Below are positions 2,117-42,587 of a stretch of 64,000 bases of DNA, one piece after another. The DNA is from a virus. The first letter of the stretch is position 1. Each line of letters begins with the position of its first letter. The position numbers and the translations under genes were made by a program. The DNA lies in the IMG/VR virus record IMGVR_UViG_3300045988_069781, positions 32,001 to 96,000 of that record, one strand, 5' to 3'. The notes under the pieces were generated by a model that saw only the letters and a list, made by a program, of their open reading frames with translations, did no database searches and had not been told where the DNA came from.

Positions 2117-2430
2117 GTGCCGATAAGTCCTGTAAAGCTTATTAATTAGTATTAATGTCTTTACATTTGTAGAGACACTAATACTAGTTAGTGCCGAAAG
2201 TTATTAAACCGAATAGATTTAGTAGGTAATTAAGTTGAATTAACAACTTCCCTCAAGTGCTATATGCCGTAGGGTGGAAAAACAATGTGCCACTGATCAT
2301 GTGCCGAAGATCATTACTATTGTTTTAGCTATTGTACTTTATGTCCTGCATAAAAACAATAGGCTCTACTTGTAGAGTTTTATAGTAATGGTTATCAAAA
2401 CACATATAGAAATTGTGCTTTATGCCGAAG
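2117..2430 (+). repeat. cluster of (G/A)TGCCGAAAG-type motifs
   Basis: GTGCCGATAAG 2117, GTGCCGAAAG 2191, ATGCCGTAGG 2264, GTGCCACTGA 2287, GTGCCGAAGA 2301, ATGCCGAAG 2422. The first three are about 73-74 nt apart. ORF-free region. Confidence 0.6.
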
Positions 2431-2862: not shown

Positions 2863-2936
2863 AGAGTAAGAAGAGAAATCTCCTTACTTTCACGACCTTT
2901 TGGTTCATATTATTAAAATTATTAAAAGTAGATATT

Positions 2937-3018
2937 CACAGTATAAGAACTGTACTGTGTCTTATTAGGCTTATTAATCATTGTTAGGACGAGGGTTCGA
3001 TTCCCTCCAGCTCCACGC
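2937..3018 (+). ncRNA. tmRNA-like acceptor piece (T arm plus 3' acceptor strand) of a permuted two-piece tmRNA-like gene
   Basis: GGAC-GAGGG-TTCGATT-CCCTC-CAGCTCC-A (2987-3015) has the same layout as the 3' end of bacterial SsrA (E. coli ...GGACGCGGGUUCAACUCCCGCCAGCUCCACCA). No complementary 5' strand lies upstream; the partner is downstream at 3105. Confidence 0.6.
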
Positions 3019-3104
3019 TCACAAGAGCTACAAGGGAAAACAAAACTAGGATTTTTGATCGTGTTGACCGTGCGCCAAGTTTTTAAATTTTAGAACGGTC
3101 AAAA

Positions 3105-3240
3105 GGGGCTGCATGGTTTTGACTAGCAATTAGAGAGATAAGATAGGTTCATGTGTGTTTAAATGGCAACTATTCGTTTGTCACTGATTATTCTTACGTA
3201 GCGTAAGAATATGATGCGTGCTAAATACGAAAGTTAGGGA
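3105..3240 (+). ncRNA. tmRNA-like coding piece (5' acceptor strand, P2 strand, candidate tag frame)
   Basis: GGGGCTG-CA-TGGTTTTGAC (3105-3123) resembles the SsrA 5' end. It pairs with CAGCTCC 3008-3014, including a G3:U wobble. TAGCAAT 3124-3130 pairs with ATTGTTA 2980-2986. GATAAGATA 3137-3145 pairs with TGTCTTATT 2958-2966. The candidate tag frame 3165-3206 reads GNYSFVTDYSYVA-stop, and its stop lies in a 9-bp hairpin at 3190-3210. Confidence 0.55.
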
Positions 3241-3309
3241 TACTCTTTAGTTCAACAGGTTAGAATCGTGATTTATCACGGAATGTGGGTTCGAGTCCCA
3301 CAAGAGTAA
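3241..3309 (+). tRNA. tRNA-like gene with a truncated anticodon arm (anticodon not assignable)
   Basis: Acceptor TACTCTT/AAGAGTA (7 bp). D arm GTTC-AACAGGTTA-GAAT. T arm GTGGG-TTCGAGT-CCCAC. Only GTGATTTATCAC (12 nt) sits where a 17-nt anticodon arm should be. Confidence 0.55.
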
Positions 3310-3345
3310 CAATTAACTTATGTTTAATTTCTTAAAAGTAATCAG

Positions 3346-3723
3346 ATGAAAAAGATGACTTTAAGCCAATTGCATGGTAATCTAAAGACTTTCAGTAAAG
3401 AATTTATAGGAGCTGGAAGTAGAAATAGTGTAGTTGGATTGTATCGGAAACTTATTGAGTTAGGAGCAATTCCATCCAGTAAGGAAAAGGATAATAGTCT
3501 TATTAGCTCTAAGCAAAAGATTGTTATTCTATGTGTTAACGATGGAATTAGAAGTAAATTTGCTCGTATCTCATTACATGAAAGATCATGGTGGGATTAT
3601 TGGCATAACAAAGCACACAAGCATTGTAAGCCAGCTTATATTACTTATAACGTACCAAAACAAATGGGTACAGTAATAAGTAATTTAAATATTAAAGAAT
3701 TAGAAACCCTAATCCCAGAGTAA
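3346..3723 (+). CDS. hypothetical protein
   Basis: 125-aa ORF, first of a tightly packed run. Confidence 0.6.
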   Translation: MKKMTLSQLHGNLKTFSKEFIGAGSRNSVVGLYRKLIELGAIPSSKEKDNSLISSKQKIVILCVNDGIRSKFARISLHERSWWDYWHNKAHKHCKPAYITYNVPKQMGTVISNLNIKELETLIPE

Positions 3724-3724
3724 T

Positions 3725-3919
3725 ATGGAACTATCTTATTGGATTTATTTTAAACCAGGTGAAAAAGATAAGCTTAAACAAATTATCGATGAAAATCCTA
3801 ATCCTTTAATGGCAAATATTGCTATTCAAGAGGAATTTGGTGTATCACTCACCGAAGCTGAGAAAATTATTGAGGTGTATAACAATAAAATTAATAAAAC
3901 ATGTCATCAAGAATCATAA
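3725..3919 (+). CDS. hypothetical protein
   Basis: 64-aa ORF starting 1 nt after the previous stop. Confidence 0.5.
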   Translation: MELSYWIYFKPGEKDKLKQIIDENPNPLMANIAIQEEFGVSLTEAEKIIEVYNNKINKTCHQES

Positions 3920-4886: not shown

Positions 4887-5453
4887 ATGAAAGAAGAAGA
4901 AAAGATTCTAATTGAAAAGGCGAAGCACGGTGATGAAAAGGCCTTTAAGCAATTGTATGATAATTATTATCGTTTAATACGATATATTATCTATGATGCG
5001 ATAAAAGATGAAGAAGCAACAGCTGATTTATTATCTGTTACTTTTACTAAGGCCTTCAAACGTCTCGATTATTTTGTTGAAACTATTTCTTTTGAAGCAT
5101 GGTTAAAAACTATTGCAGTAAATACAGTCATTGACTATATTAGAAAGAATAAGAACCAACAAGATAATATCTCTATAGATAATGAGAATAATGCAATTCA
5201 AATATCTAGTGATAACGATCCCGAAACTGATTTAATTAAATCAGAGTCAATAGATATTCTTAGAATTGCATTAACTCGACTTAGAGCCAAATATAGGAAC
5301 CTTCTAGAACTCAGATATTTTGGTAATCTAAGTTATGAAGAGTTAAGTGCTGAGCTTGGTATACCAGTTGGAACTGTAAAGTCTGACTTAAACAAAGCTA
5401 AGCATAGACTCAAGTATTATTTTCAAAAAATTTCAAAAACTAACAAAACATGA
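4887..5453 (+). CDS. ECF-type sigma-70 family RNA polymerase sigma factor
   Basis: Region 2-like segment YDNYYRLIRYIIYDAIKDEEATADLLSVTFTKAF...FEAWLKTIAVNTVIDYIRK. Region 4 HTH LRAKYRNLLELRYFGNLSYEELSAELGIPVGTVKSDLNKAKHRL. Confidence 0.8.
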   Translation: MKEEEKILIEKAKHGDEKAFKQLYDNYYRLIRYIIYDAIKDEEATADLLSVTFTKAFKRLDYFVETISFEAWLKTIAVNTVIDYIRKNKNQQDNISIDNENNAIQISSDNDPETDLIKSESIDILRIALTRLRAKYRNLLELRYFGNLSYEELSAELGIPVGTVKSDLNKAKHRLKYYFQKISKTNKT

Positions 5454-13547: not shown

Positions 13548-13582
13548 TTATTACAGGGGTGCGACTGTTCAACGCACAATCT

Positions 13583-13654
13583 AGCGGGATGGCGCAAAGG
13601 TAGCGCGTAGCTTTCACGAGGCTGAGGTTGATAGTTCGAATCTATCTCCCGCAA
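13583..13654 (+). tRNA. tRNA-Val (anticodon CAC)
   Basis: Cloverleaf by hand. Acceptor AGCGGGA/TCCCGCA (A1:A72 mismatch). D arm GCGC-AAAGGTA-GCGC. Anticodon arm TAGCT-TTCACGA-GGCTG. Variable loop AGGTT. T arm GATAG-TTCGAAT-CTATC. Confidence 0.8.
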
Positions 13655-13965
13655 GGTCACTAAAGTAGATACTTCCACGTAGTGTGACTGGATTAAAACT
13701 AAAATCTACTTAAAATAAATAATATGAAATCAGAACCAGAACAAATCGCAGAAGAAAAAGGATATACAATAACAGATAAAGGTATTGTAAGAAATTAGGA
13801 TAAATATATCTAAATACGCTAATATGAAATATGATGAGAATTTAATAAAATCTATAAAAGAAGATAGATATAAAGGAATGTGTTATAAGGAATTAATTAC
13901 GAAATATAATATTAAAAATAAAAGTTCTTTATCATATATTCTAAATTGCAGATAACCATAGTACT

Positions 13966-28661: not shown

Positions 28662-31600
28662 TTATTCACATTCTTTTTTACGTTGTTTACCCATTTTATC
28701 TAATTCCTCTGTAGCAGAATCATTTGCTGCTTGTTTCAAGTCAGCTGTAGTAGCAGATACAAATTCTTCATCTAAATCATAATCCTCTACTACTTGTTGT
28801 TTTGCTTTTTCTAAAGTCTGAACCATTACATAGTTCTTTGCTCTAGATACTGCCACATACTTCAATTCTTGTCTTACTTCTTGACCATTTTTATCATTAA
28901 ACCCAAAAGTATTTATACTACTGTCGTTAATTAAAACTTTACTATAAGTACCACCTTGAGATTTATGAATTGTGTGAGCATATCCGTAATCAAACGATTT
29001 TCTAAGCTTTAATCTACCGTTAGCGTCTTTGATATCTCGCATAGTGTGAATTTTATTTTGTATCCTATTAATTTTTTCAACAACAGATCTAGCTGCAGTC
29101 GGATTTCCCTCAGCTAACAATTGCTTACGCATACTCCACAAGGTCTGTATATATTCTTGAACTTTTATGATATTTTCATCTGTTTCAAAATTAGATACTA
29201 CATCAATAGTAAACGAAGAAGCAGAAGTATCTATTGCGTCTTTGAGAGTAACTTTATATCCTTCCATACTTATACTTTCTTTTCTGTCAGGATATGTTAA
29301 ATCAATTTGAATAGTAGTGGGTTTAACACTTTGCACTACGTAGTCTCCACTATTCATTAATTTGTATTTCTTTCTTAAAGAATCGTATTCTCTATTAGAA
29401 TAACCCATTACAAGTTCTCCTTCATACAATTGTGCTGGTCTCCTACCATACAGAATTTGTCTTATTGCAGAGTTATAAGCTTCTACAGAAGCATTTGTTG
29501 CAGCCAAGACTCTAAAATATAGAGGATCTTGTGAATCTTTCATTTCTTTTAATGAAGTTTTAACAAATTCTCTAATTCTAGTTTTGTCTGATGAATATTC
29601 AACTCCTTGACCATTAGGAGCAATGTCTGTTTCATAGCTAAAGCCTTCCCCATTTCTTACTCTAGTAGATTCTTTTAATATAGGATTATCTCCAGTTCTT
29701 TCTACTTTGGTTAACTGCAATTGTGCACCATCATTTCTAAATACTTTAGATATATTATTTGCTCTTACTGGTCTTAATTGACCTTTATCCCCCACGAATA
29801 TGATCTGAGCACCTTTTGCTGCAATTTGTTTAAGTAAGAAATCGTATAAACTATCTTGAATCATTGAAGCCTCATCAACTATAACTATTGAAGCATCTTC
29901 TATTTTAACAGCAGCTACTTGTTCAAATTTCAATTTGTGTAGATCAAATACATCTTCAGTAATATCAAAATCAGGACGCAATCCCAATAAACTTTGAAGT
30001 GTAAATACTTTTGCGTTTGGGGTTTTCTGTATAGTTACAGCGTTCGCTCTATGAGTTGGAGCTGAGAAAATAATATCTGCATGTATTCTACGCTTCAAAT
30101 ACTTATTAAATATACCCATAATAGTAGTCTTACCTGTACCAGCATAACCAGACAAAGTAATAGATGTATCATCTCCATTAACAAATGCTTCTAACTCTTT
30201 CAAAGCAGACTTCTGTTGGTCATTCAATTCAAAATCTAATTTAACTTCTAAACCATCATCAAAAGTATATACATATTTATCTTGTATTTGCTTAGTTTCT
30301 TCAACAGCTTGTTTTACTTCTTCTACTTTGGGTAAAGCTTCTGTTAAACCTACTTGACTGGCATATTGTTGAAGTTCAGTAAATGATGCGGCTTCACCGT
30401 TTCTCGATTGATAAGTCTTAGACCATAAATCAACATTTTCAGTAGCTACAGTCTGTAAAGCATTTTCATTGAATTCTCCAGCTTGGTTGAATATCTTAGT
30501 CTGTAAACTAGCTTTGACAGGAGTCAAATCTTGTACATAGGTTATAGCCTTAGATGGTGTAAAGTCTATGCCGGTAGGTACTACATTGTTATAACCTACA
30601 GAAGATTTCTTAAAGCCAAATTCAACAAGTACATTACCCTTATAACTTAAACCTTTCTTATTAATCAATTGATATACTGGTACTTTATTTTCATCTACAC
30701 CAATATATTTATATAAGAAAGTAGTTCTAGGGTCATTGTTCTTATCTAATTTAACCTTCTTATAAAGGTAATGTATAGGATCACCTGCTTCATTATAACC
30801 TACAATACCTCTGAATTTACTAGATTCATCATAGATTATAGAAGGTATTTCAACTTGTTCTCCTTTCTTATTAGTTACAAATAATCCACTACCATCATGA
30901 GCAACAGGTCTGTATACCGCTCTACCTTCTTCTTCAATAGTTTCATAGCTAGAATCCAATTTATAGTATTCAATAGCAGGAACTACGTGATCATTCCACC
31001 ACAGATTTCTAATTACTTCTTGTAAGTCTATCTGAGATATAACATTTTCTGGATGCTTTTCTAATTCTCTAATATAATCAAAATATCCTATTTCCTCTCT
31101 TATAGAGTTAGGAACATATCTAAATATATTGTTCTTACCGAAAGCATCTCCAGACGTATAGAAAGAATATATTGCAAGATCTTTAGCAAAGTCTCTTACT
31201 TCTTTATAATCACTTTCATAAAGTTCTTCCCAAGCACGAATTATTTCATTTTCTAAATTATTATCACCACTCTTATTGGGTTTATATGCAATGAAGTCAG
31301 GTCCTTGTAATTCTGCAGCATCTTCTTTAGGTCTACTAAAGATGTTGTTAATCAACACATTTGAAAAACTACCATCACTCCCAAGTAATGAAGGATATTT
31401 GCCTTGTAATATATCAGATTTAAGTCTATCCAATCTTCTAGAAATACTATCATTACCAAATAACATGCCACGGAATCCCATTTGATTATCTTTAACATAT
31501 TGATTAAAGAATTTAGTCTTATAGGATACTTCCATTGCTCTAGTGATATTGTTAATATATGTATCATCACTTACTGCATAGCCTTTGGTATAGTATTCAA

Positions 31601-32888
31601 TTAATGATCGTAAGGTTTCAAATTCTGGAGTAAGTCTAATCATGACATTCTGGAATGCATTTCTAGGAAATACTAATCCATCGATCATTTTCTTACCCAA
31701 GAATGTATTAGTAAACACTTTCAAAGGATTGTCGAAAACAGCCTGTTCAGTCATATACTGTTTCCATTTATCCAAGAATGCGCTTTGTAAACCAAAGTTA
31801 TTACCAAATCTCTTAGTATCAATTTGAGATAAGTTAGTTAATTCTGACAAACTCTTAGAAAATGGAGTTAATTCTTCATAAGCCTTAAGAATTAATAATT
31901 GATTATAGTACCAATCAAAAGTTTCAGTTTTCTGCAATTGTTTTCTAAGATGTGGTACAGTAAACATAGTTTTTCTTTGATTAGTACTTACACCTTTATC
32001 CTTAAGATAGTTCAGAAGATTCTCTTTCTTACCACCGGATAACTCTTTTGCTTTCTTATAGTAATCGTTCCAAATTTTAGTAAATGCTAATCTTTCAGGA
32101 TTTTTACCAGCAGGTATTTCAACACCATAAAAACCAGAATATTTATCATATTCAGTTGCATAGTCTTTTAATATCTGTTGAGGTAAGAAATAGAATGTAC
32201 TTTCACCTTTACCACTTCTAATTAAGAAGTTAGTCATGTTAAAAGTTAATTTACGTACATTCAAACGAATAATATATGGGTCTTTAGCTACGTCTACGTG
32301 AGCATTAATCAAAGCTGATAACCAGTCTAAAACATTGATCTTATTTGTATCTTCACTTTGAATGTGATGCAAATCACGTATACCATAATCATTCAATACT
32401 TTATTTGGTTTGAAATTCAATTTAACTAATTGAGTTAATACTTGATGAGCATTAGCTAACGCAAATGGACCAATACCAAACTTACCACCATTCAACTCAG
32501 CTTTAGTCCTACTCTGGAATGCTGGAGTAGAGAAATACAATTGAGATTTACTAGTTCTCTTACCTTGACCAGTTAATTTATCAACATCCTTAAGAATCTT
32601 ATCTTTCAGATAATCTGTCACAGTATCAAGAGGCTGTCTAGCTTCTGCAAAGTTCATAGGATTGCTAATTACTGACAAATACATATCAAGAAGCATGTTT
32701 TCATTTGCTTCTCTACTATTTGCTTCAAAATCAGTTTTACCATTGTATCTCTCATAAGCTTTTCTTACTACAGTTTCATCATCTAAACCAATAGCTTTCA
32801 ATCTCTGAACATACTGATCTTTTGTTTCGAACTTGATTCTATTACCATTATTGTCATAGTTATATCTTGCTATAAATAATTTATCAAT
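28662..32888 (-). CDS. virion RNA polymerase polyprotein, exon 2 (begins ...IDKLFIARYNY; C-terminal RecD-like SF1 helicase domain)
   Basis: The frame is open from 32888 to stop 28662 (1408 codons) with no ATG near its start. Helicase motifs GYAGTGKTT, IVDEASMI, FVGDKGQLRPV, HTIHKSQGGT and YVAVSRAK. Confidence 0.7.
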   Translation of the reverse strand: MDKLFIARYNYDNNGNRIKFETKDQYVQRLKAIGLDDETVVRKAYERYNGKTDFEANSREANENMLLDMYLSVISNPMNFAEARQPLDTVTDYLKDKILKDVDKLTGQGKRTSKSQLYFSTPAFQSRTKAELNGGKFGIGPFALANAHQVLTQLVKLNFKPNKVLNDYGIRDLHHIQSEDTNKINVLDWLSALINAHVDVAKDPYIIRLNVRKLTFNMTNFLIRSGKGESTFYFLPQQILKDYATEYDKYSGFYGVEIPAGKNPERLAFTKIWNDYYKKAKELSGGKKENLLNYLKDKGVSTNQRKTMFTVPHLRKQLQKTETFDWYYNQLLILKAYEELTPFSKSLSELTNLSQIDTKRFGNNFGLQSAFLDKWKQYMTEQAVFDNPLKVFTNTFLGKKMIDGLVFPRNAFQNVMIRLTPEFETLRSLIEYYTKGYAVSDDTYINNITRAMEVSYKTKFFNQYVKDNQMGFRGMLFGNDSISRRLDRLKSDILQGKYPSLLGSDGSFSNVLINNIFSRPKEDAAELQGPDFIAYKPNKSGDNNLENEIIRAWEELYESDYKEVRDFAKDLAIYSFYTSGDAFGKNNIFRYVPNSIREEIGYFDYIRELEKHPENVISQIDLQEVIRNLWWNDHVVPAIEYYKLDSSYETIEEEGRAVYRPVAHDGSGLFVTNKKGEQVEIPSIIYDESSKFRGIVGYNEAGDPIHYLYKKVKLDKNNDPRTTFLYKYIGVDENKVPVYQLINKKGLSYKGNVLVEFGFKKSSVGYNNVVPTGIDFTPSKAITYVQDLTPVKASLQTKIFNQAGEFNENALQTVATENVDLWSKTYQSRNGEAASFTELQQYASQVGLTEALPKVEEVKQAVEETKQIQDKYVYTFDDGLEVKLDFELNDQQKSALKELEAFVNGDDTSITLSGYAGTGKTTIMGIFNKYLKRRIHADIIFSAPTHRANAVTIQKTPNAKVFTLQSLLGLRPDFDITEDVFDLHKLKFEQVAAVKIEDASIVIVDEASMIQDSLYDFLLKQIAAKGAQIIFVGDKGQLRPVRANNISKVFRNDGAQLQLTKVERTGDNPILKESTRVRNGEGFSYETDIAPNGQGVEYSSDKTRIREFVKTSLKEMKDSQDPLYFRVLAATNASVEAYNSAIRQILYGRRPAQLYEGELVMGYSNREYDSLRKKYKLMNSGDYVVQSVKPTTIQIDLTYPDRKESISMEGYKVTLKDAIDTSASSFTIDVVSNFETDENIIKVQEYIQTLWSMRKQLLAEGNPTAARSVVEKINRIQNKIHTMRDIKDANGRLKLRKSFDYGYAHTIHKSQGGTYSKVLINDSSINTFGFNDKNGQEVRQELKYVAVSRAKNYVMVQTLEKAKQQVVEDYDLDEEFVSATTADLKQAANDSATEELDKMGKQRKKECE

Positions 32889-33164
32889 CGCTTGTACCCA
32901 CTGTTTCCAGTGGGGCTAGACTATATCTTCACTTTGATAGTGCTCCCCATTTCGCCTTTCGGCTACTCTACTTGCTTCTTCGATCATTTTTTGATCTATG
33001 CGTTCGATAGTCGTTGAACTTTCCCCTATACGGGGCTTAGCTGCTGATTGTCCAATCTCATTGTTTTTCAAACATTCGCACATATCTTTTCAGATTATGC
33101 TGTAGTAAATGAGCTCTAAGGGGTTTCCAGCAATTAAAGGAGTTTTACTTCAACTATGTTGTTA
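32889..33164 (-). mobile_element. group I self-splicing intron, ORF-less (boundaries +/- a few nt)
   Basis: Minus-strand RNA. Guide AGUUGAAGU (33147-33155) pairs with exon ACUUCGAUU, with U:G at GAU|U. GAAGAUAUAGUC core (32919-32930) pairs with GACUAU (33007-33012) as P7. GCC-GAAA-GGC (32954-32963). P9 CCCACUG-GAAA-CAGUGGG (32897-32914). Confidence 0.75.
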
Positions 33165-36100
33165 ATCGAAGTCTGACCCAGTAAGGGCTGTAAATTCATC
33201 AGGAAGAGTAATAGTATCACCAATCTGTTCAGGATAAACGTCCACCACTTTTAAAGCTGCTGTAGAAGCTTGACCCTGTGCAGGGATACGATAACCCATA
33301 GCTATTGCCTTTGTATCTGGACCAATTATATCGTGGTTTATTAACCACGCTTTAGCTTGACTGAAAGTCATTTTATCATAATTAGGTATGATGTGTTTCA
33401 ATAAGTTAATTGATATAACACAATCCATACTACCATCATTATTAACAAAATTAAGCTTTCTTACATGGTTGGCATCAGATGTTACAGCTAATCTATTATA
33501 TAAGATAGAAGACATCTGAATAAACATACCACCAGGTAGATTAGTATCTACTATGGCTTTATTCAACATTGATATAAGACCACTTTCAATCCAAGAATTA
33601 TCGGATAAACCTGAAATAGGAGCATTAGTGTTGCCATCTTCTACAGTAAGACCATTCAAAACATTATCGTTCATGTTTGAATTTTCTGCTTTTCTCTTAA
33701 GAATATTGGCAAACTTAACAATACTAGCTTGTGGATTATTGGCATCAATACCGAAGTCTTTTTCTATACTCTTTCTACCAAATTCAGTAATAGCATTATG
33801 TGCTCCATTGAAGTTATCAATAACCTCTTGTCCTGAGTAAGATACACCGTTGGGAGTAGTATATGTCCAAGCTGTTCTAATGTTACCCATAGCTGCTTTT
33901 TGAGCCTGAGATACAAACATCTGTCTATCTGCATGGTGTGGATCAGTTACTAGCTGACGTCTAAAATTAACTAAAGACTGTTTGTGAGTAGGCATATTCA
34001 TTAAACCTTCTACGTCTACCTTGGTATTTGATTTATCTGTGTAAATCTTAGATTTAACTTCTTCAACTCTTTGACCAACTTTAACTGCAGATTCAAACGC
34101 AAGCATGTGTATGTTTCTGGCTTGCATTACTTTTAATACTTCTCCCATATCCCCTGTAGAGAATATTCTATGAACTGGGAACATAGCCATTTTGTCAAAT
34201 ACGGGTATGTCTCTCTTTGCATTTACATCATAATGATCGCCGAAATACATTAACTTCAAAGGTTTTAATGTAACGGCTAAGGCTTCATTATAAGTATCTG
34301 CATCAGCTTCATAATCTGTTTCAGGGTTATTCAATATATCAAAAGCTTTAGCTACTTCAGGAGTCCATCCATCAATTCTTCTAACTAATTCTTTATAGAA
34401 TTCAGGAGAGATAAGTACTGTAGCATCCGTTTGGTTTACTTTGGTATAACCACCAAATTTACTATCAACTACAAGATTAGCAGCATCTTCAACGTCTTGG
34501 GGCAATGCTTCACCACTCTCATACATTGCAAGAGCTTCTTCTTGAGTCATATCATGCATTTCCTGTAACAGTCTTACTGCAGCTGACTTTTTAGCAAATT
34601 CATTGATTCTATCAAGCTGTCTACTAGGTATTACATTATCTGATAAAGTACCTACATTAACTTCAGTTAAGTTTGATAATTCATTACCTTCTCCATAATC
34701 TATTCTAGGAGTAACACCAGTTGACAATACCTCACGAAGACGTTTAATTTTATCTACAGGATCTTTATAATATGCAGGATCTTTAATAAATAACTTCTCA
34801 AATTCTATTACTGAGGATATAGTATTAGCAAAATAGTTTGCCATTAACTCTGTAGCAGCTAACTCTTTGCTGTATTTTGATACCTCTTGACGTTTTTTAT
34901 AGTGATTTTCTGCATCATCCAATGCCTTTTGAGGAAGCGCTAAGCTCTTTACACTAGCAAAATCCTTACCATTCCAATCAATTATACCTATTTCTTTTGC
35001 ATAATCCAATTCGTCTTTAAAAGCATCTGTTAAATATTCATTCATTAACAAAGCTTTATCAGAGTTACTCATCTTAGCCCAAGCTGCTTTTATTTGATTT
35101 ACTACGGATAATGCTAAGTCACTACCACCAATGTCTTCAGCAAGTTTAAGAGCTTCATTGAAATTAGAGAAATCATCTACAAATTCAATACCACCTAAAG
35201 TTGGTTGTTCTTTAAGTTTAAAGAACCCGTTGAAATATCTAAATCTGTAACCATTTCTATTACCAATATCATAGTTCTTTACTTTTTGTTCCTTTGTCAG
35301 ATTACCTTCATTCTTATAGTTGAATTCAATAGTATCTAATTCAGTTTCAAAGTAATTAATAAATCTGGTTAATACTTTGGCATTAAATTTAACTTGATTG
35401 TTAGTAGTATCTAAAGGTTGATTGAAATTGTTGATAGCTGTGCCATATAAAGTATTATATGTCTGAGAGTCACCCATAGTAGGTAAAACAATTCTACCTT
35501 TCTGAGTAAGTGTCATTTTAGCAATATAATCTTCCAATGGTGAGATTTCTGTATACTTACGTCCTTTATCACCACTACCCTGTTCCTTGAAATAAACCAA
35601 AGTTTCAACACCTATTTTACCAGATGCGGTAGGATTATTATAAAGATTTGTAAGTAAATAGGAACCTTTGAAATAATTAGGGTTAGCATTGTTACCAGTA
35701 TTATATAATACCTTAGTAAGAGCTTCTACTGTAGCTGGATCATTATCAAGATTCTGAACCATATCTGTTAAGTAGTTATGATCAGATATAGGATATAACA
35801 ACTTACCATCAGTAGACAATACAGACAACTCATCTGAGTTAGGATGTGTCATACCATACGTTTCAGACAATCTACCTAAGAATTTAGAATCATCATAGTA
35901 TCTGCTGATATGTCTATTAAATGTACCAGGTACATTACCAGATGGTTCAATTTTCAGTACATCTTTTAACTTATTACCAAATAAGAATGATAAACCAGCA
36001 TTACTACCATCAGTAAACAAATTTACTATTTGCTCTGCAGGATTTGGATCATAATATTCTTTAATCAAAAATGAATTTAATGTAGCCATATCTACAGATA

Positions 36101-39100
36101 TGCCGGCTCTACTTAAAAGCGACAATACATTATCTTTTATCTTGATAACATTAGCTTCTACATACTCTTTGTAAGTCTGACCATTCTTAAGCTTAGCGTT
36201 TGGTTTATTCTTATAGTTCTTGAGTAAGTTATTAATCTTGTGATAATCATCTAATAATAATTCTACATTAGTTTTATTATCAGTAGTTTTCAATGTATAA
36301 CTATCACCATCAAAATTTATTAACTCAGTCATTCTAAGTAAACCATAGTTCCAACCTTCGATTATATTCTTAGAAATCTTATTTGCATTCTCATCCTTTA
36401 CATACAAGTTAGTCTGATCATTACCATTAGTATTCTCAATCTTTTCAGACAAGATACCAATAAGTTTATGTTTAGCTTTTCTAAAGGTATTTCTAAATTG
36501 AGTCTGTAAATTCTCTCTAGCTATTACTTGGGCTTCTGATTCTCCTGGAACGGTCTTTGATATTTTATACAATTCTCTGTATAATGTGTCAAAGATAGGT
36601 AATGATTTTGCACATTTAGCACATTTATTCATCATACCTTCAAATGTGTTCTCTGAATGCAATTCATTGATTATAGTATTCCATGTAGAATCAAAATCAA
36701 CCATAAGAGGTAAACCTGTAACAGGACTTAATACCGTTCTAGTTTTCTGTACCTTTGCAACAGAACCATCTTCTTTTTTAACATCTGCCTCATAGAATTC
36801 TCTTTTAGGCATAGTAGCAATGAAGATCTTAATAGATGCTAAAGCATTATCTTTTACTGAGGTTTCTAATGACTCACGGATATATGTAGCCATTTGATCT
36901 CCTACAGCAGAACCTTCAGCCTTTTCATCTATTTCTTGGTCGATGTTTTCCTGTTTGTCTACAGCTCTGATTTGATATTCATTCAGTTTCCTTATAATTG
37001 CTGGTAAGAATACACTATCAAAGGTTTCATATATTTCTTTTCTAGCCTCCCCTTGTTCTTTGGTAATCTTTCCATTTTCTACAAGTTTATCTGTTAATGA
37101 AGGTTCTAATGCGCTCTTTAACAAACTATAATTTAAACCTGTTAAATCATCTCGCATCTTTATGTTATTCAAAGTAAACAAAGAAGCAACTAATGAATTA
37201 ACACTTTCTTTAAATTGTGTATTTGTGATATTCTTGAAATTGTGACCACCCAATTTAAATGGAGCTCCCGCACCTTTATAAGTATTTAAGAACTCCTGTA
37301 CAGCTGCAGAATTCTGTTTAGATCTACTATAATAACCTGTATTGATCCTATCAAAGATGTTGTCAATAGTAGTATCAGTTCTCCAAACCCATTTACTAAT
37401 AAAGTTTTTGATTGCTTTCCAAGCTCTTTTAACGATATTTAAATCAGGTTCAACTTTATTCAGCATATACTGCCTAAAGTCTTCTGCAAGAGCTTCTTCA
37501 ATGTCTTTATCAGTACCGATTAAACCAGTTCTATTTCTATAAGCTTCGTATATCTTACGACGTTCTTTGGGTGAAATAGTTAACAATGATATTCTATGAT
37601 ATGCTTCATGATATAAAGTACCTATTTCTGCGCCTTTCCACAGTAATGTAGAATCCTGCCTAACAAGACCCATAGCATACACATTGTTACCTAGTGATAT
37701 AGCATCATCTACTATTGTAAGAGAATCGCTTTGGAAACCTAATTTCTTTTTGAACCATTCTATTTCCTCGTTAGACACCTCTTTAGTTACTTTACCAGTA
37801 AGACGTCTCATAGGAATATCAATGTCATCGTCTTCTATAGCAAACGGGTCAATTGTGCCATTCTTGGTAATTTCATTAATCTTTTTTGATTCTTCTGTTA
37901 ATTCTTCTGGCTCTACTGCAGAAGTACCTGTAGGGATATTAGATACATTTTCAACCTTATTTTTAGTTTCTTCAACTGCCTTATCACTTTCTACTTTCTT
38001 AGATATGGTTTGAATATCATCCGCATAAGCAAAAGAATCTTTAAACAATTGATCCTGTAAATCACTTTGGATTAAATTGTTAGTAACAAACAAACCCATT
38101 GTATACATAGGCGTATGTTCTGCATTACCTAAGAAGTCTTCTCTACGTAATATTACGCCAGGAATAGCGTCTTCCCATATATAAGAACTGTTTTTTGTAA
38201 ACGCTTCTTTTAAGGAAGGTAAAGCATCACCTATAGGACTAAAGAAATTTTCTCTATTAGCTCTCCAGTGAAATCCCATTAAATCATTAATAAGATCTTC
38301 TTTGTCTTGAGAAGACATATTACCTACATGATAAGATTTTTCTCCTACTACCAGATCACCTTTATCATTTACATAAAGCTGTTTCTTCTTCATCCAATTG
38401 AAGGTAGGAATATCAGATGTAACTTTGGTTTTATCACCGAAACGAACCATAAAGTCAATCAATTCCCCAGCTACAATTTCTGTATTCTTATAATAAGACT
38501 CAGGAGAAGCTCCATAATTCAAAAGTAAATCTGCAAGAAATTCAGCTTGTTTTCTGTCAAATCTTTGTAAATTAACTTGTACAGGTATCTCTGAATTATT
38601 AAGTGTACTAGATTTGGGGGGATAGATAAATAACTGACCACTACCACCAGTACCATTCAATATTTCACCACCAGCGCCAAGAATCAAACTGTCAGAAATA
38701 ATACCATTACTGATACCAAAGGTTACATTTTCTGGAGTAATGTCATACACATTGGATGGAATTGCAAAACCTTTTACTTCTTGTACAGGTCTGAATACTG
38801 CCTTTTGACCATTTCTATTTACATTATATCTACCTCTAGTTCTACTGATAGTACTTGGTACAATAACTTCATTCTCTGTCTTATTTTCAATGGCAGTAAT
38901 GATTGCGTTTCTAAAAGATTTTAAGTCATTTATAGAAACTTCATTAGCTTGTTCAATTGTATTAAGCTCTTCTGCTGTAGCACTATTACGAATACCTGCA
39001 ATATCTACATCAAATTTAGTTCTAGCTCCTTTAGGAGTCTTAAGTGCTAAAGCATACTTACCAGTAGGATGTTCTACACTTAATATGATAGAGGCACTAT

Positions 39101-42100
39101 CATATGTAGTCTTATCACCCTTTTTGTATGGCTTACTACCTTTTTCAGTATAAGATTCATTGATAATAAATTCACAGAAACTATCTGTAAAGAAATTAGG
39201 ATCTTTGATTCTTTCTGCTAATTCTTTACCAGATTTATAACCCGGTAATATAGGAGTAGTAGAATCCGGGGAGAAGAACAGTGTATGTGATACGGTATCT
39301 TTAGCTAATTCTTCTACTTCTAAAGAATCTTCATATTCTCTAGATTCAGAATCCATATCTGTTTTACTGTCATGTTTCTGTTCAGTAGCTAATTTCTTTT
39401 TAGCCTGTTCAACTTTCTGTTCTACAGTAATATCCGGAGTAATAGTATCAACTGTTTGTGATACTTTCTTATCTTCATCTGTAGCAGCAGCTAAAGGATC
39501 TGCATCTGCATTGGCAGCTGCTCTCAAATCTTTATCTGTAGCAAAAGCAAACTCTTCATCCTCTTCTTCAACATCTTCTACTACTGGAGCTTTTGTCTTA
39601 CTTTCTTCTGCAATCCTTTTACGTTCTGCTTCAAATTCTGCAGCTAGTTCTTCCAAACTCTTTGTAGGAAATTCTTCATCACGTTTAGTTGCTGGTTCTG
39701 TTTTTTCTTCAGGCTGCATTTTAGGTGTTGCTTCAGGAGCAGTAGGTTCTGGTGCAGGTATTTCTGTGTTTACTTTGGATTTTGCTCTAGAATCCATTAC
39801 AGGAGATTGTGGTTTTTCAACTTCCTCTCTTTGTACTCCTGGAGCAATTTTACTTGCTGCTACAGTTTCATTGTTGTCTGTACCATTATCAGCTACTTCT
39901 TTTTCTGTAGAAGCAATATCTTGTTCAACAATCTGCTTGGCGTTATCTTCTGCAATTCTACTAGATTCATCTGAATTATTCAGGTAGTTCTCAATTCTCT
40001 TTTTGATATTATTTAATACCTTTTTCTTTGATTTATCTGTAGCTTTGTCAAAACTAGTAAGTTTGCCATCTTCCAGAGTATTACCGAATATCTCATTCAT
40101 TTTATGCTCTGCTACCAAAGCATCATGCTGAGCTAACATTAAGTTTGCATAGCTATCTACACCTGTCTGCATAACATGAGGAGCTGCTACAAAATCTGTA
40201 CTAAACTTTGTATCAGCAGCTACTTGAGCCAATTGACTATCAATGTTCTTAATAGCTTTAGGTATAGTCTTTAAAATAGATTTAGCTACAGAATTATCAC
40301 TATTAGTAATACCAAATTTAGTTTTACCATCTTCTGCTGGAGCTTCAATCGCATTCTTTAACTCCTGTAAAGCTTCTTTCTGTACATTCAACTTAGTCAA
40401 AGTAATAGCTGCTAGCTTTTCTTCTGGAGTGTAATTACTCAATAAAGCATCTTCAGAAAGATCTGCATACAATTTATTATCTGCATCCTGAGCTGCTTTT
40501 GCATTGTTTACAGCTTCTTGTAAATCTAATTGAGCTACATGCTGTAAACCAATTAATGTATTATATTCTGTAGTACCTGCAGAATAACCTAATTGTTTAC
40601 CAATGTTCTTAGTAGTCTTAGACTTAGCTAAGTTAAATACATTATTCGCAGTTTTGATTTCAGCATTTATATCTTCCTCAGTAAGACCATCAGGCATATG
40701 ATATTTAAAATTCTCTAATACTTCAAGTACACTATCTTTGTAATTGAGCATAGATTTTGATGCTTTATCAGCATATGTTACTGCTTTATTCATAGCATCT
40801 TTCTTAGCCATATTATCTGCTACCATATCTCTAACAAAAGTGTTGGCAACAAAGTCTTTACGCATATCAATACCAGCATGATACGCAGTAGTAGGACCAC
40901 CTAAGTACATACCTAATGCGAAACCACCCTTTACATCATTCCAGAATTGAGGATCATTGGCTAATTCTGATTCAGTATCTATTCCTGATAAAATTTTTGC
41001 AGTACGGTAATTAGCTTCGGCTAACCCAAGTAATGATGAAAATACACCAGAAGAATTTTTATCGTACTGATTGTGAATATAATCGTAATCAAATATATCC
41101 TGATCACCTTCTTCAAAAGCTTCAACAGTAGCAGCAAAACCCATACGAGCTAGAGCTTTAGCACCCTTGCTCAACATATTCATTTTGGGACTATTGTAAG
41201 CTAATCTAGCATTAAATCCGGTGTAAGCATCAATAAGCTTATTATAATTCTTAGTAGCAGTATCAGATAATTTAACTAAAGGCTTTAATGCGCTAGCTAT
41301 AGGTTTAGTTATAATTTTACCCATAGCTTTACCTAATGGGGCAAATATCAAAGCTGATTGTGCAGCATCCATTGCAGACAAAGCCATGTTATTATTGTAA
41401 ACATTTTCTAAGCCATTATCTGCTGAATCTTTTAAAGAGTTTAGAACTTCATCGGAAATTTTAATCTCTCCAGATAAAGTTCTATCTATAATTTCATCAT
41501 CTGAAATCTTTGTAACATCTATATTAGGATTCTGTTGTTTCAATTGATCTCTACCCATTTGAACATAGTCTTGGATAGATACACCTTTACTTTCAAGATC
41601 TTTTTCAATCTTAGAACGATATGCTCCATACACTTGCGCCAATGATTCTCTATGTCTACTATAGATATTACCTGCTAAACTTAGTGCTGTAGCAGCAATA
41701 GCTGAGCTCCAACCAATAAGATTAGATGCTGCACCAATACCAGGAACTGCATTCAAAGCGCCAGTAGTAGCATAATGTCTACCAAGATATAAAGCACCTG
41801 TTGCTAATGCGTCAGCTACATAGGATTCAACAGTAGACATTGATGAACCTGTTAAACCAGGTCCGGCGTATAATACATAATCAGAATCATAGAAAGGCTT
41901 ATCTTGAGCTTTCTGTTCTTTTATTTGAAATCTAGCAGAAGGTTTGTATCTTTCAGATCTAGATGTGATAGAATCATAATAATCTTGAATGCTCTTATTT
42001 ACTTCGGATTGTTCGTTTACCCACCAATCTCTTACCCCATTTAAGTATTCAATTCTCTTATCAACATCTGTACCTTCTGAATCATTGTACTTTGCTAATA

Positions 42101-42587
42101 TCGTGTTATACTTTTCAGAATTGGCTTCTAAATTGTTTTTAAGAATTTCATATTGCTGTAAGGTATTTTGATATTCTTGAGAGCTCTTATCCATAGTAGG
42201 TAAGACGCTTTCAAGATTCAAAAGCATTTTCTTATCATTTAAATATTGTAATTCATAATCAATATCTTCAATAACAGGATTAATGTCTTTTACTAATTTA
42301 GCTCTTTCAGACATCAGATTAATTTGATCTCTATTATTAGCAAAAGTAGTCCAAGCATCCCTTAAATAACTCTTATCCTTTAGTGTTTCTTCTGGAGTTT
42401 CTTTATTTAACAGATACGCATATTCATAATCATCTAATGGAGTTGTTTCTAAGTTCCTATCATAACCTGTTTTAATATTAGTGATAGGAGAATACTGAGC
42501 ATTGACCGTATCCATAGCCTTACCTAATAAGGCTGCTTTGCTAGGTGTATTGTCAGTAGGATATTGACCTAATATAGATTTTTCCAT
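33165..42587 (-). CDS. virion RNA polymerase polyprotein, exon 1 (3141 codons, ends ...TALTGSDFD)
   Basis: Giant ORF. The C-terminus GYRIPAQGQAST...ITLPDEFTALTGSDFD parallels NRxP...NADFDGD of two-barrel RNA polymerases. An internal HEAYH zincin-type motif is present. TAA 33164-33162 is assigned to the intron. Confidence 0.7.

Follow-up and report, generated by a model that had tools for sequence, protein, structure and literature searches.

The segment at positions 2937-3240 of the window, i.e. of the whole 64,000-nucleotide stretch of viral DNA analysed here, is very probably, judging from its sequence and that of its relatives, a circularly permuted (two-piece) and functional tmRNA gene carried by a crAss-like phage of the Suoliviridae. 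The window belongs to a Crassvirales/Suoliviridae phage of the human gut and is about 97% identical over the locus to the genome cr55_1. A phage-borne permuted two-piece tmRNA had been proposed at this place from the letters alone, and all the strings quoted in that sequence-only reading are present where it had located them. The proposal was borne out by two independent detectors. ARAGORN, run for permuted genes, calls a tmRNA* (permuted) at 2926-3297 with a tag identical to the one first read. The Rfam model RF04321 (tmRNA_permuted) matches 2958-3206 with 58.0 bits (E=1.2e-8 when all 64 kb of the window are searched with 4227 families), above its gathering score of 47. The two-piece tmRNA call is far beyond chance. 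Most of the relatives tested also exceed the RF04321 threshold, nine homologues scoring 47.1-62.4 bits, while cr52_1 and cr60_1 stay below it with 41.3 and 40.3 bits. Within the set of lineage models (RF01849, RF01850 and RF01851), the alpha and cyano tmRNA models have no match in the window, even at E values up to 5, and the beta_tmRNA model reaches 35.9 bits against a gathering score of 84 and covers the tRNA-like domain only.

The gene is organized as an acceptor piece, a variable intervening segment and a coding piece, followed directly by a tRNA-shaped element. The acceptor piece comprises, in order, a 5' stem-loop, the 3' strands of helix P2, the T arm, the acceptor 3' strand and the discriminator A. 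The coding piece comprises the acceptor 5' strand with G3, a D-loop analogue, the 5' strands of P2, a linker of about 20 nt, a 13-codon tag frame and a short tail. Together, the two pieces of the phage RNA amount to about 215 nt. The individual features are as follows.

2937-2959, plus strand: 5' stem-loop of the acceptor piece, CACAGTA, loop TAAGAACTG, TACTGTG; 5 of 7 pairs compensatory in 20 Boorivirinae
2970-2975, plus strand: 3' strand of P2b, CTTATT; partner GATAAG at 3137-3142
2980-2986, plus strand: 3' strand of P2a, ATTGTTA; partner TAGCAAT at 3124-3130
2987-3015, plus strand: 3' half of the tRNA-like domain, GGAC-GAGGG-TTCGATT-CCCTC-CAGCTCC-A (ARAGORN, RF04321 alignment)
2991-3007, plus strand: T arm, GAGGG-TTCGATT-CCCTC; one compensatory pair across Suoliviridae
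3008-3014, plus strand: acceptor 3' strand, CAGCTCC; stem with three compensatory pairs across Suoliviridae
A3015, plus strand: discriminator; CCA unencoded (C3016, then GC)
3016-3104, plus strand: intervening segment, termed cassette a; 89 nt, presumably excised
3017-3028, plus strand: proximal hairpin of cassette a, GCTC-ACAA-GAGC
3064-3071 with 3095-3102, plus strand: distal stem of cassette a, TTGACCGT / ACGGTCAA
3105-3123, plus strand: 5' half of the tRNA-like domain, GGGGCTG-CA-TGGTTTTGAC (ARAGORN, RF04321)
3105-3111, plus strand: acceptor 5' strand, GGGGCTG; 7/7 pairing with 3008-3014
3112-3123, plus strand: D-loop analogue, CATGGTTTTGAC; aligns to the RF04321 consensus
3124-3142, plus strand: 5' strands of P2, namely P2a TAGCAAT (3124-3130), an internal loop and P2b GATAAG (3137-3142)
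3165-3206, plus strand: tag reading frame from the GGC resume codon at 3165 to TAA at 3204-3206, encoding GNYSFVTDYSYVA followed by the stop (ARAGORN)
3190-3210, plus strand: helix-5-like hairpin, ATTCTTACG-TAG-CGTAAGAAT; stop codon 3204-3206 in the 3' strand
3217-3240, plus strand: 3' tail of the coding piece, hairpin CGTG-CTAAA-TACG (3217-3229), then AAAGTTAGGGA
3241-3310, plus strand: tRNA-shaped element; Rfam tRNA 49 bits versus 29, ARAGORN 'tRNA-??? (tt)'

In order to follow these elements through evolution, 96 homologous permuted loci were collected and two alignments were built, the first (A1) consisting of 20 Boorivirinae relatives and the second (A2) of 22 distinct sequences from three Suoliviridae subfamilies. 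In A1, 98.6% of the cells are paired, compared with 93.8% after shuffling and 41-47% when the partners are slid, and 8 pairs are compensatory. In A2, 99.2% of the cells are paired versus 88.2% after shuffling, with compensatory changes at 9 of 18 pairs, three of them in the acceptor stem that joins the two halves; as the relatives were gathered by exact-match patterns, the T arm and acceptor are partly fixed by the collection. Across the 96-locus set, the acceptor stem, the T arm and helix P2 stay paired via compensatory changes, and G3:U70 does not vary. Purifying selection acts both on the pairing that joins the two pieces and on the tag frame. The compensatory changes sit on a few deep branches and represent few independent events. 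The structure was judged by covariation rather than by RNAcofold, which, applied to the two pieces, reproduces the acceptor stem and T arm without P2.

The tRNA-like domain is complete in its two halves. The 7/7 acceptor pairing first read in the window, including its G3:U wobble, is confirmed, and the stem covaries at 3 of 7 pairs with 100% of the cells paired (GGGGCTG/CAGCTCC, GGGGCAT/ATGCTCC and GGGGTTG/CAACTCC among the 22 distinct sequences); a further variant, GGGGTAT/ATACTCC, is seen in relatives. The alanine identity elements are present as G3:U70 (G3107:T3012) and A73 (A3015), the former being invariant in 22/22 distinct sequences. A T arm with a loop of the GGGTTCGAnTCCC type is present and aligns to the RF04321 consensus, and the D-loop analogue stands in place of the D and anticodon arms. 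The 3' 29-mer of this domain is identical to that of Bacteroidota ssrA genes, the 3' ends of ssrA genes are common att sites (PMC11915505), and tRNA-Ala genes share the GGGGCAT...ATGCTCCA acceptor. The locus could on these grounds be taken for host ssrA fragments at a prophage att site, or for a decayed tRNA-Ala or tRNA array resembling a tmRNA. Such an origin is extremely improbable: the locus has its two halves in permuted order, joined by covarying pairs, together with a conserved tag frame, the gene is conserved over three phage subfamilies, and exact-pattern scans for the Boorivirinae type found no matching arrangement in 185,579 bacterial and archaeal genomes. The ssrA copy beside an integrase, which the sequence-only reading had named as the sign of an att-site relic, was looked for as well; the annotation of cr55_1, the near-identical genome, contains no integrase.

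Helix P2 was recovered in a modified form. Its inner pairing, TAGCAAT 3124-3130 with ATTGTTA 2980-2986, stands as first proposed, while the outer partner placed at 2958-2966 had to be replaced by CTTATT at 2970-2975. The discarded pairing of GATAAGATA (3137-3145) with TGTCTTATT (2958-2966) is complementary here but shows a C.A mismatch in 8/20 relatives and no compensatory change. The compensatory changes in P2 that had been called for in related phages were found in both alignments. In P2a, 8 sequences show two compensatory pairs, one in which U-A is replaced by C-G and one in which G-C is replaced by A-U, and 94% of the cells are paired in A1. P2b is 100% paired, with one compensatory pair in A1 and 5 of 6 pairs compensatory in A2, and its strand CTTATT has its homologue in the GCTTAT motif found in the one-piece tmRNAs of Bacteroidota. 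Upstream of P2, the stem-loop at 2937-2959 would form the 5'-end structure of the acceptor piece; it cannot be a terminator preceding a separate promoter, since P2b begins 11 nt further on. In the more distant relatives cr52_1, cr114_1 and cr60_1, the same position is occupied by a hairpin unrelated in sequence. Pseudoknot 1, or a substitute for it, matters for the E. coli tmRNA. Here, P2b is separated from the resume codon by 22 nt (3143-3164), and a canonical pseudoknot 1 would hardly fit into the roughly 20 nt available between P2 and that codon; a search of the phage tmRNA found no pseudoknot. Pairing of the TAAGAACTG loop with GGTTC (3147-3150 region) was considered as a candidate and rejected: both strands are invariant in Boorivirinae, but the loop is wholly different in cr52_1, cr114_1 and cr60_1.

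The tag frame running from GGC 3165 to TAA was confirmed, as ARAGORN returns the same tag. The frame has no start codon and encodes a non-polar C-terminus. The tag family follows the consensus GN-x(1-2)-[FY]V[TM]DY[ST]-x(1-3)-A with a length of 13-15 amino acids; its conserved codons vary synonymously only (AAT/AAC, ACT/ACA, GAT/GAC and TAT/TAC) and its insertions and deletions are whole codons. The placement of the stop codon in a helix-5-like hairpin is equally backed by the relatives: upon folding, the stop lies inside a hairpin in 33/33 distinct tag regions whose hairpin sequences differ, and the outer stem covaries with synonymous changes of the D-Y codons (GACT/AGTC versus GATTAC/GTAAATC). 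The earlier suggestion that an atypical tag retargets or subverts host trans-translation found no support, the tags keeping a host-like ending, [N/D]-Y-x-x-(x)-A, or in some cases RLVA or RLAA.

These results also bear on whether the RNA might act without its tag, as a decoy whose tRNA-like domain would soak up host SmpB, and perhaps AlaRS, and thereby shut down host trans-translation, the tag frame remaining untranslated. There are precedents for such a molecule, as that of mycobacteriophage DS6A consists of little beyond the tRNA-like domain and a similar molecule strongly inhibits the E. coli tmRNA (PMC4131195, PMC11915505). In one crAss-like contig (L127), the form present is reduced to the tRNA-like domain and measures about 100 nt, and the phage RNA lacks a recognisable pseudoknot 1. 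The conservation described above runs against the decoy and makes it highly improbable: the tag frame is maintained at the amino-acid level, with only synonymous third-position changes in the conserved codons and whole-codon indels, and the resume context and the stop within its hairpin are conserved too. Such a pattern is expected only if ribosomes read the frame.

The intervening segment is the least constant part of the locus. The hairpin reported within it was confirmed as the distal stem of cassette a, TTGACCGT at 3064-3071 pairing with ACGGTCAA at 3095-3102. This stem covaries (TTAACCGT/ACGGTTAA and TCTACCGT/ACGGTAGA) around a conserved loop. The fold z-score of cassette a is -0.56, and it has no Rfam match to a known ribozyme or RNA family at E values up to 5. 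Its core was found in 27 viral contigs. An existence of cassette a outside tmRNA genes was considered and rejected: 16/16 newly fetched loci place it between tmRNA halves and the other 11 are known permuted-tmRNA loci. Relatives with near-identical flanks carry unrelated inserts of 46-433 nt in the same slot, including in some of them a true tRNA-His and RAGATH-7-assoc (109.8 bits). Most inserts finish with a hairpin located 2-5 nt before G1, and the fold z-scores are unremarkable for most of them. The interchangeable inserts, their closing hairpins and the covarying stem and conserved loop of cassette a would suit a tRNA-punctuated processing platform, whose main product would be the intervening RNA or the 3' tRNA-like RNA instead of a tmRNA. 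We regard this as highly improbable. It is the tmRNA parts that are conserved while the inserts are exchanged, cassette a shows no sign of independent existence at any locus checked, and the folds of most inserts do not stand out; a platform could moreover supplement a tmRNA function but not replace it.

The element at 3241-3310 has the shape of a tRNA, with cloverleaf acceptor, D and T arms and 10 of 16 pairs compensatory, yet it does not look like a decoding tRNA. It lacks a 7-nt anticodon loop with U33 and a readable anticodon: the 'anticodon' loop is shortened to 4 nt (CGTGA-TTTA-TCACG) or is a 6-nt loop, ATTTAT, and the Rfam tRNA alignment deletes it. In relatives, this loop measures 4-8 nt or the whole arm is absent, a 7-nt UUU loop being possible in one subgroup only, and the elements are called Lys, Ile, Leu, '???' or a bare minihelix. 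The element probably serves as a handle for RNase P / RNase Z and thereby defines where the coding piece ends on its 3' side. The RNase P site that had been suggested for the downstream tRNA-like gene fits these observations, as a tRNA-shaped element starts 134-150 nt after G1 in 56/73 distinct relatives, whatever its apparent identity. No such 3' element was detected in the other 17/73, and the idea of a processing handle is consequently not universal. In vertebrates, MALAT1-mascRNA provides a tRNA-like 3'-end processing element directly downstream of a non-coding RNA, whose 3' end is made by RNase P; the putative handle at 3241-3310 resembles it by analogy only, without homology. The tail preceding the element is nearly invariant in Boorivirinae, and an analogous CGGC...GTCG hairpin is found in Loutivirinae and Uncouvirinae.

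The genomic context was also examined. No ORF of at least 40 aa overlaps 2863-3345, and the neighbouring genes are all on the same strand as the tmRNA gene. No smpB gene is present among the 102 annotated features of cr55_1 and none was found by Pfam in 10 neighbouring ORFs. A sigma-70-type scan, whose coverage excludes Bacteroidota and phage promoters, found nothing above shuffled expectation at the tmRNA gene. The hairpin GTAAGAAGA-GAAA-TCTCCTTAC (2865-2890) was rejected as a repeated phage promoter or regulatory motif, being present in the window as a single copy at or below chance. Stop-codon recoding was similarly discarded as a reason for extra ribosome rescue, as TAG/TGA readthrough barely lengthens the ORFs and no suppressor tRNA was found. 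In RefSeq, five sister genomes of the Suoliviridae already bear features named 'transfer-messenger RNA, SsrA', and the earlier statement that permuted tmRNAs are not established for Bacteroidota phages does not hold to that extent; as far as publications are concerned it stands, a full-text literature search having found no paper discussing the tmRNA of crAss-like phages. Phages are not listed separately in the supplement of the tmRNA database. The locus looks like a member of a phage-born lineage of permuted tmRNA genes for which no published description was found. In cr55_1 and cr1_1 the tmRNA was missed because of an intron. Annotation is inconsistent across pipelines: the gene of Kehishuvirus tikkala is labeled 'hypothetical protein' and the 3' element tRNA-Lys.

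Two-piece tmRNAs are described as working in Caulobacter and other alpha-proteobacteria in the passages of PMC9004378 and PMC11915505 that cite Keiler et al. 2000. The mechanism proposed for the permuted tmRNA gene is modelled on these molecules, every step after transcription being deduced from them, and can be summarized as follows. The locus would be transcribed rightward in a single precursor with the surrounding early or middle genes. Host RNase P would cleave 5' of G3105 and 5' of T3241 and so produce both ends of the coding piece, while host 3' processing would trim the acceptor piece to A3015 or C3016 and the CCA-adding enzyme would complete CCA. The two pieces would be held together by the acceptor stem and P2, and charged by host AlaRS via G3:U70 and A73. 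Host SmpB and EF-Tu would then carry the RNA to stalled ribosomes; as no smpB is annotated in cr55_1, host factors must be used at this step. Resumption at GGC 3165 would append A-GNYSFVTDYSYVA, a tag with a non-polar C-terminus. One may speculate that the phage gains extra ribosome rescue while host mRNA is destroyed or RNA is cut by defence nucleases, and that ribosomes are freed and truncated proteins recycled.

Crassvirales rank among the most abundant viruses in the human gut, and many of them carry their own ribosome-rescue RNA, in one piece in Steigviridae and in two pieces in Suoliviridae, of which no phage is known to have been cultured. An origin of the two-piece form inside phages would add one more independent permutation of the tmRNA gene. 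Intermediates for it are on hand in the one-piece relatives, the alleles with an intron and the forms reduced to the tRNA-like domain, and the way in which such permutations arise would therefore be testable. At about 215 nt and without a recognisable pseudoknot 1, the RNA would define a very small tag-encoding tmRNA. A broader reading, unlikely as a whole, is that of a fourth two-piece lineage derived from a one-piece phage tmRNA and used beyond mere ribosome rescue, with a strongly conserved, non-host FVTDY tag block conferring a phage-chosen fate and a slot expressing other small RNAs. The fate could consist of delivery to a particular adaptor or protease, or of protection from degradation; the RNAs expressed from the intervening segment would be tRNA-His, RAGATH-7-assoc or cassette a.

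The two-piece tmRNAs of the alpha, beta and cyano lineages (RF01849, RF01850 and RF01851, merged in RF04321) share with the phage gene the gene order, a tRNA-like domain made of two RNAs, G3:U70 and a tag frame whose stop codon lies within a helix. The phage gene nevertheless reaches none of the three lineage models. Its tag opens with G, read from a GGC resume codon as is the case in Bacteroidota, whereas tags of the three lineages begin with A; unlike theirs, it appears to have no room for pseudoknot 1 and its coding piece is followed by a tRNA-shaped element. This permuted type was, in addition, found in phage contigs only, the two exact-pattern scans, specific for the Boorivirinae type, revealing no bacterial source in the 185,579 bacterial and archaeal species genomes.

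Among phages, two-piece tmRNAs are known from marine myophages, i.e. Melnitz, pelagimyophages and cyanophages (PMC9004378). Theirs are likewise phage-borne permuted ssrA genes found by ARAGORN, located among early genes of lytic phages without integrase (PMC9004378). They group, however, with the alpha or the cyano lineage, following their present or former hosts (PMC9004378), whereas the crAss gene matches the Bacteroidota tRNA-like domain and, unlike them, carries no glutamine riboswitch. Capture of a permuted host gene cannot simply account for it, because the Bacteroidota tmRNA is one-piece.

The gene is similar to one-piece tmRNAs of Bacteroidota and crAss type and not to the permuted alpha, beta or cyano lineages. 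Bacteroidota-type one-piece tmRNAs possess the identical 29-nt T-arm and acceptor 3' end and share the unencoded CCA, with a C alone following the discriminator, the GCTTAT motif of P2b and the UAACU-GGC resume context; the 5' end GGGGCTG..TGGxTTTGAC is also common to both. The SsrA tags of Bacteroides and other Bacteroidota, GETNYALAA and GENNYALAA (bioRxiv 10.1101/2025.03.18.644028), resemble the phage tags in their [N/D]-Y core and Ala C-terminus but lack the conserved extra FVTDY block. The Bacteroidota gene is unpermuted and measures about 390-400 nt with pseudoknot-sized regions, compared with about 215 nt in two pieces for the phage RNA. We infer that the permutation took place in phages, starting from a one-piece tmRNA of Bacteroidota or crAss type, as an event separate from those of the alpha, beta and cyano lineages. 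Within the same phage order, the one-piece tmRNAs of Steigviridae (cr106_1, and Kehishuvirus 'tikkala' on Bacteroides cellulosilyticus) have the acceptor GGGGCAT/ATGCTCC, which is that of the permuted genes of Loutivirinae and Uncouvirinae, and their tags begin with GNTY.. or DNTY.. in resume-codon surroundings very similar to those of the permuted genes. They differ from the latter by their standard gene order, their length of 300-390 nt and their shorter tags (DNTYRVAA and AEVDYTPVRMAA).

The sequence-only reading had proposed a circularly permuted tmRNA gene in the window, and every sequence element listed for it was found at its position. The locus is composed of the following parts:

2937-2959: stem-loop CACAGTA[TAAGAACTG]TACTGTG, with compensatory changes at 5 of 7 pairs among 20 Boorivirinae sequences
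2987-3015: 3' half of the tRNA-like domain, made of GGAC, the T arm GAGGG-TTCGATT-CCCTC, the acceptor strand CAGCTCC and the discriminator A
3105-3123: 5' half of the tRNA-like domain, GGGGCTG-CA-TGGTTTTGAC, about 90 nt downstream of the 3' half
3165 (GGC) to 3204-3206 (TAA): tag frame encoding GNYSFVTDYSYVA
3190-3210: 9-bp hairpin containing the stop codon
3241-3310: tRNA-like gene

The acceptor piece, which holds the T arm, spans 2937-3015 and measures about 82 nt with its CCA; the coding piece, which holds the tag frame, spans 3105-3240 (136 nt), dimensions that make this a minimal tmRNA. Distant relatives carry a hairpin of unrelated sequence at the site of the 5' stem-loop. ARAGORN calls a permuted gene (tmRNA*) at 2926-3297 with the tag peptide already read from the sequence, and the Rfam model for permuted tmRNA, RF04321, scores 58.0 bits over 2958-3206, above its gathering score of 47 (E=1.2e-8 when the entire window is searched with all 4227 Rfam families). 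No ORF of at least 40 aa overlaps 2863-3345 on either strand. The resemblance of the locus to tmRNA is not a matter of chance.

The proposed pairing was compared among relatives retrieved by two exact-pattern scans of IMG/VR and RefSeq relatives, which yielded 96 permuted loci and 75 distinct coding pieces. In a gap-free alignment of 20 Boorivirinae sequences, the structure is 98.6% paired, versus 93.8% in column shuffles and 41-47% with slid partners, and eight pairs display compensatory changes. Stronger results were obtained with 22 distinct sequences covering three subfamilies, where 99.2% of the cells are paired versus 88.2% in shuffles. The compensatory changes fall on few deep branches and thus represent few independent events. 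In this second alignment, the acceptor stem formed between the separated halves is compensatory at 3 of 7 pairs (GGGGCTG/CAGCTCC, GGGGCAT/ATGCTCC and GGGGTTG/CAACTCC), G3:U70 is invariant and the T arm shows one compensatory pair; T arm and acceptor are partly fixed by the search patterns, cr50_1, cr52_1, cr114_1 and cr60_1 having been found by BLAST instead. A fourth acceptor combination, GGGGTAT/ATACTCC, was seen in loci fetched later. The outer strands of helix P2 (P2b) are compensatory at 5 of 6 pairs. One helix of the initial proposal had to be redrawn: GATAAGATA (3137-3145) had been paired with TGTCTTATT (2958-2966), a pairing that contains a C.A mismatch in 8 of the 20 Boorivirinae sequences and no compensatory pair, and in Loutivirinae and Uncouvirinae the partner segment reads TTGACTGTT, with no complementarity at all. 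Two P2b partners are possible in the window because the near-repeat CTTATTA occurs twice in the acceptor piece. The partner CTTATT at 2970-2975 is 100% paired and compensatory among relatives; its counterpart in the one-piece tmRNAs of Bacteroidota is the motif GCTTAT, whose partner there is GTAAGC.

The tag frame follows a family consensus, GN-x(1-2)-[FY]-V-[TM]-D-Y-[ST]-x(1-3)-A, of 13-15 residues. Its conserved codons differ only by synonymous third positions (AAT/AAC, ACT/ACA, GAT/GAC, TAT/TAC, TCA/TCG) and its length varies by whole codons, which together are the signature of a frame read by ribosomes. An RNA acting as a pure decoy, made of the tRNA-like domain alone, is disfavored by this signature. 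The comparison of the stop hairpin with helix 5 of SsrA holds: each of the 33 distinct tag regions has a hairpin whose 3' strand contains the stop codon, and synonymous changes in the D-Y codons are matched by covariation (GACT/AGTC versus GATTAC/GTAAATC) in the outer stem, where these codons pair with bases following the stop. The native Bacteroides tag, GETNYALAA, is a strong degron (bioRxiv 10.1101/2025.03.18.644028). Compared with it, the phage tags retain an [N/D]-Y core, still end in small or non-polar residues (..SYVA, ..RLVA, ..RLAA, ..ALGAA) and contain an additional, conserved FVT block. Retargeting of proteins by the phage tag is speculative. With the exception of this idea and of the P2b partner, the original interpretation is supported. 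The identity of the locus as a genuine permuted tmRNA gene is close to certain, and its full functional account is highly probable. The main structural doubt concerns the functioning of the RNA without pseudoknot 1: P2b and the resume codon lie just 22 nt apart, versus about 50 nt of pseudoknot 1 in host genes, and no pseudoknot was found in the phage tmRNA. A candidate loop pairing did not hold up when relatives were compared.

The tRNA-shaped element at 3241-3310 is not a normal decoding tRNA. Its acceptor, D and T arms covary (compensatory at 10 of 16 pairs), its identity could not be assigned by ARAGORN and its anticodon loop is deleted in the Infernal alignment; the 'anticodon' arm consists of 5 bp and a loop of 4 nt or, alternatively, 6 nt. 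Among relatives the loop measures 4-8 nt, one subgroup permitting a 7-nt UUU loop called as tRNA-Lys. In some, the element has neither D nor anticodon arm and is reduced to an acceptor/T minihelix of 42-54 nt, and others carry a tRNA-Ile or tRNA-Leu at this position. The element begins 134-150 nt after G1, the first nucleotide of the coding piece, in 56 of 73 distinct sequences and is absent from the remaining 17; in permuted tmRNAs on unrelated environmental phage contigs (at least L004, L038 and L063) a rho-independent terminator stands there instead. Shape and position are thus conserved and identity is not, which is consistent with a handle for RNase P / RNase Z whose cleavage would give the coding piece its 3' end.

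The intervening segment behaves as an exchangeable slot, judging from the unrelated inserts of 46-433 nt that lie between near-identical halves in relatives. These include the following:

L071 1562-1634: tRNA-His(GTG) of the cr114_1 type, 63 bits
L068 818-939: RAGATH-7-associated RNA, 109.8 bits, starting directly after the acceptor end
L067: insert containing ORFs

A tRNA within the intervening sequence was called unique to one case in the tmRNA database paper (PMC11915505). The 89-nt insert of the window (3016-3104) has no Rfam match and an unremarkable folding energy. Its distal hairpin covaries, with a loop conserved across two subfamilies. Its core is present in 27 viral contigs, lying inside a permuted tmRNA gene in 16 of 16 newly fetched loci, the other 11 being permuted-tmRNA loci already known. 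It ends 3-4 nt before G1 in most newly fetched loci, and most other inserts place a terminal hairpin 2-5 nt before this mature 5' G; such a hairpin could be an RNase P leader structure or could cap a released RNA at its 3' end.

At this locus, the window shares 95-97% identity with two uncultured phages of the human gut, cr55_1 and cr1_1 (Crassvirales, Suoliviridae, Boorivirinae). A RefSeq 'transfer-messenger RNA, SsrA' feature exists at the homologous site in five sister genomes of three subfamilies, namely cr10_1 and cr50_1 (Boorivirinae), cr52_1 and cr60_1 (Loutivirinae) and cr114_1 (Uncouvirinae), all five of which receive a permuted call from ARAGORN. A full-text literature search found no paper discussing tmRNA in crAss-like phages; the gene is therefore present in databases but undescribed. 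It sits within a non-coding stretch of about 1.2 kb in a rightward early or middle module, followed by small ORFs, a repressor-like protein and an ECF-type sigma factor. Neither smpB nor an integrase is annotated in the near-identical cr55_1; the RNA must consequently use the SmpB, AlaRS, EF-Tu, RNase P and CCA-adding enzyme of the host, and an att-site relic is excluded. No sign of stop-codon recoding was seen. The surroundings contain further elements:

2120-2299 (+): RAGATH-22, just at threshold (120.5 versus 120.3 bits), scoring 155-194 bits in several relatives
2300-2730: also non-coding
2865-2890 (+): hairpin GTAAGAAGA-GAAA-TCTCCTTAC followed by TTTCAC, single copy in the window
4887-5453 (+): the phage ECF-type sigma factor (Sigma70_r2 and r4), 1.6 kb 3' of the tmRNA
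13582-13655 (+): tRNA-Val(CAC), immediately 5' of the DNA polymerase gene

Ribozyme-associated RNAs thus occur in the upstream non-coding region of the window and of relatives (L002 699-825 and 1678-1856; L070-L072), and sister phages have RAGATH-9, RAGATH-20 and a Hatchet ribozyme (101 bits) there. The 2865-2890 hairpin is conserved just 5' of the tmRNA in many relatives, in the form GTAAGGAGA-GNGA-TCTCCTTAC, and its counterpart in cr10_1 lies only about 15 nt before the 5' stem-loop. It could terminate transcription of the upstream ORF 2731-2862, or act in processing or regulation.

In cr55_1 (NC_055869), a 705-nt group I intron (3103-3807; RF00028, 58.7 bits; -1 U, omega G) with an HNH endonuclease ORF encoded on its other strand interrupts the permuted tmRNA at T-loop position 7. 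It is responsible for the tmRNA being missed by ARAGORN and RefSeq; its removal in silico restores the tmRNA* call, with tag GNTMFVTDYSCVA. The intron is also found in cr1_1 and probably in L205, and no 'permuted plus intron' form is listed in the 2025 tmRNA database (PMC11915505). The window holds the allele without it. Another group I intron (32897-33240 (-); RF00028, 78.6 bits) lies in the window between ORFs 28662-32801 (1379 aa) and 33162-42587 (3141 aa). As these ORFs together match a single 13.7-kb gene of cr55_1, this intron belongs to the window only, and the tmRNA intron, of the two, to cr55_1 only.

One-piece tmRNAs with GENNYALAA/GETNYALAA tags on other contigs have exactly the same 29-nt T-arm and acceptor end. 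Further features shared by the phage gene and such Bacteroidota-type genes are an unencoded CCA, the discriminator being followed by just a C, a 5' end reading GGGGCTG..TGGxTTTGAC, the P2b motif and the UAACU-GGC resume context. Among the models of permuted lineages, beta reaches 35.9 bits, where its gathering score is 84, with a match confined to the tRNA-like domain, and the Rfam alpha and cyano models give no match. Standard one-piece tmRNAs of 300-390 nt are present in Steigviridae crAss-like phages, including cr106_1 and Kehishuvirus 'tikkala', which is cultured on Bacteroides cellulosilyticus (L095 661-977; L089 10336-10723; L082; L085; OQ198717 87750-88042). Their acceptor is GGGGCAT/ATGCTCC, their resume regions closely resemble those of Suoliviridae and their tags are DNTYRVAA, GNTYRAAA and AEVDYTPVRMAA. 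The region is annotated as hypothetical proteins in the tikkala record. A form of about 100 nt, the tRNA-like domain alone with no tag, was observed on contig L127. Neither the permuted arrangement nor the coding piece turned up in two pattern scans that covered 185,579 species genomes of bacteria and archaea. With moderate confidence, the permutation occurred within crAss-like phages from a Bacteroidota-type one-piece gene; if so, it is independent of the three bacterial permuted lineages.

Other permuted tmRNAs with the same 29-nt 3' end were observed on environmental, non-gut viral contigs (L004, L017, L018, L031, L044, L048, L063, L038, L046, L015 and L042), with differing tags such as GKTINFSNAPLRAVA, GKVVSMFSPELRAVA and ANANDYALAA. 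Permuted tmRNAs may be more widespread among phages of Bacteroidota. In assemblies of Bacteroidota, which themselves have one-piece tmRNA, the tmRNA database lists 48 sporadic 'permuted' instances, 18 alpha, 23 beta and 7 cyano by best model (PMC11915505 Supplementary Table 2). Contigs of crAss-like phages binned into MAGs may account for some of them. Beta is the model that partly matches the Suoliviridae permuted genes.

Two-piece tmRNAs of phages are a known kind, and the Suoliviridae gene is itself already in databases. ARAGORN classed 53 of 133 unique phage tmRNAs as two-piece, 50 of these 53 being marine or aquatic, and such genes were already known from marine myophages (PMC9004378). 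The 2025 tmRNA database holds 79 phage sequences and recognises alpha, beta and cyano as the only permuted types (PMC11915505). The Suoliviridae lineage is set apart by the absence of pseudoknot 1, by an origin that is probably within phages, by a tRNA-like domain of Bacteroidota or crAss type, by the tRNA-shaped 3' element after the gene and by an exchangeable intervening slot.
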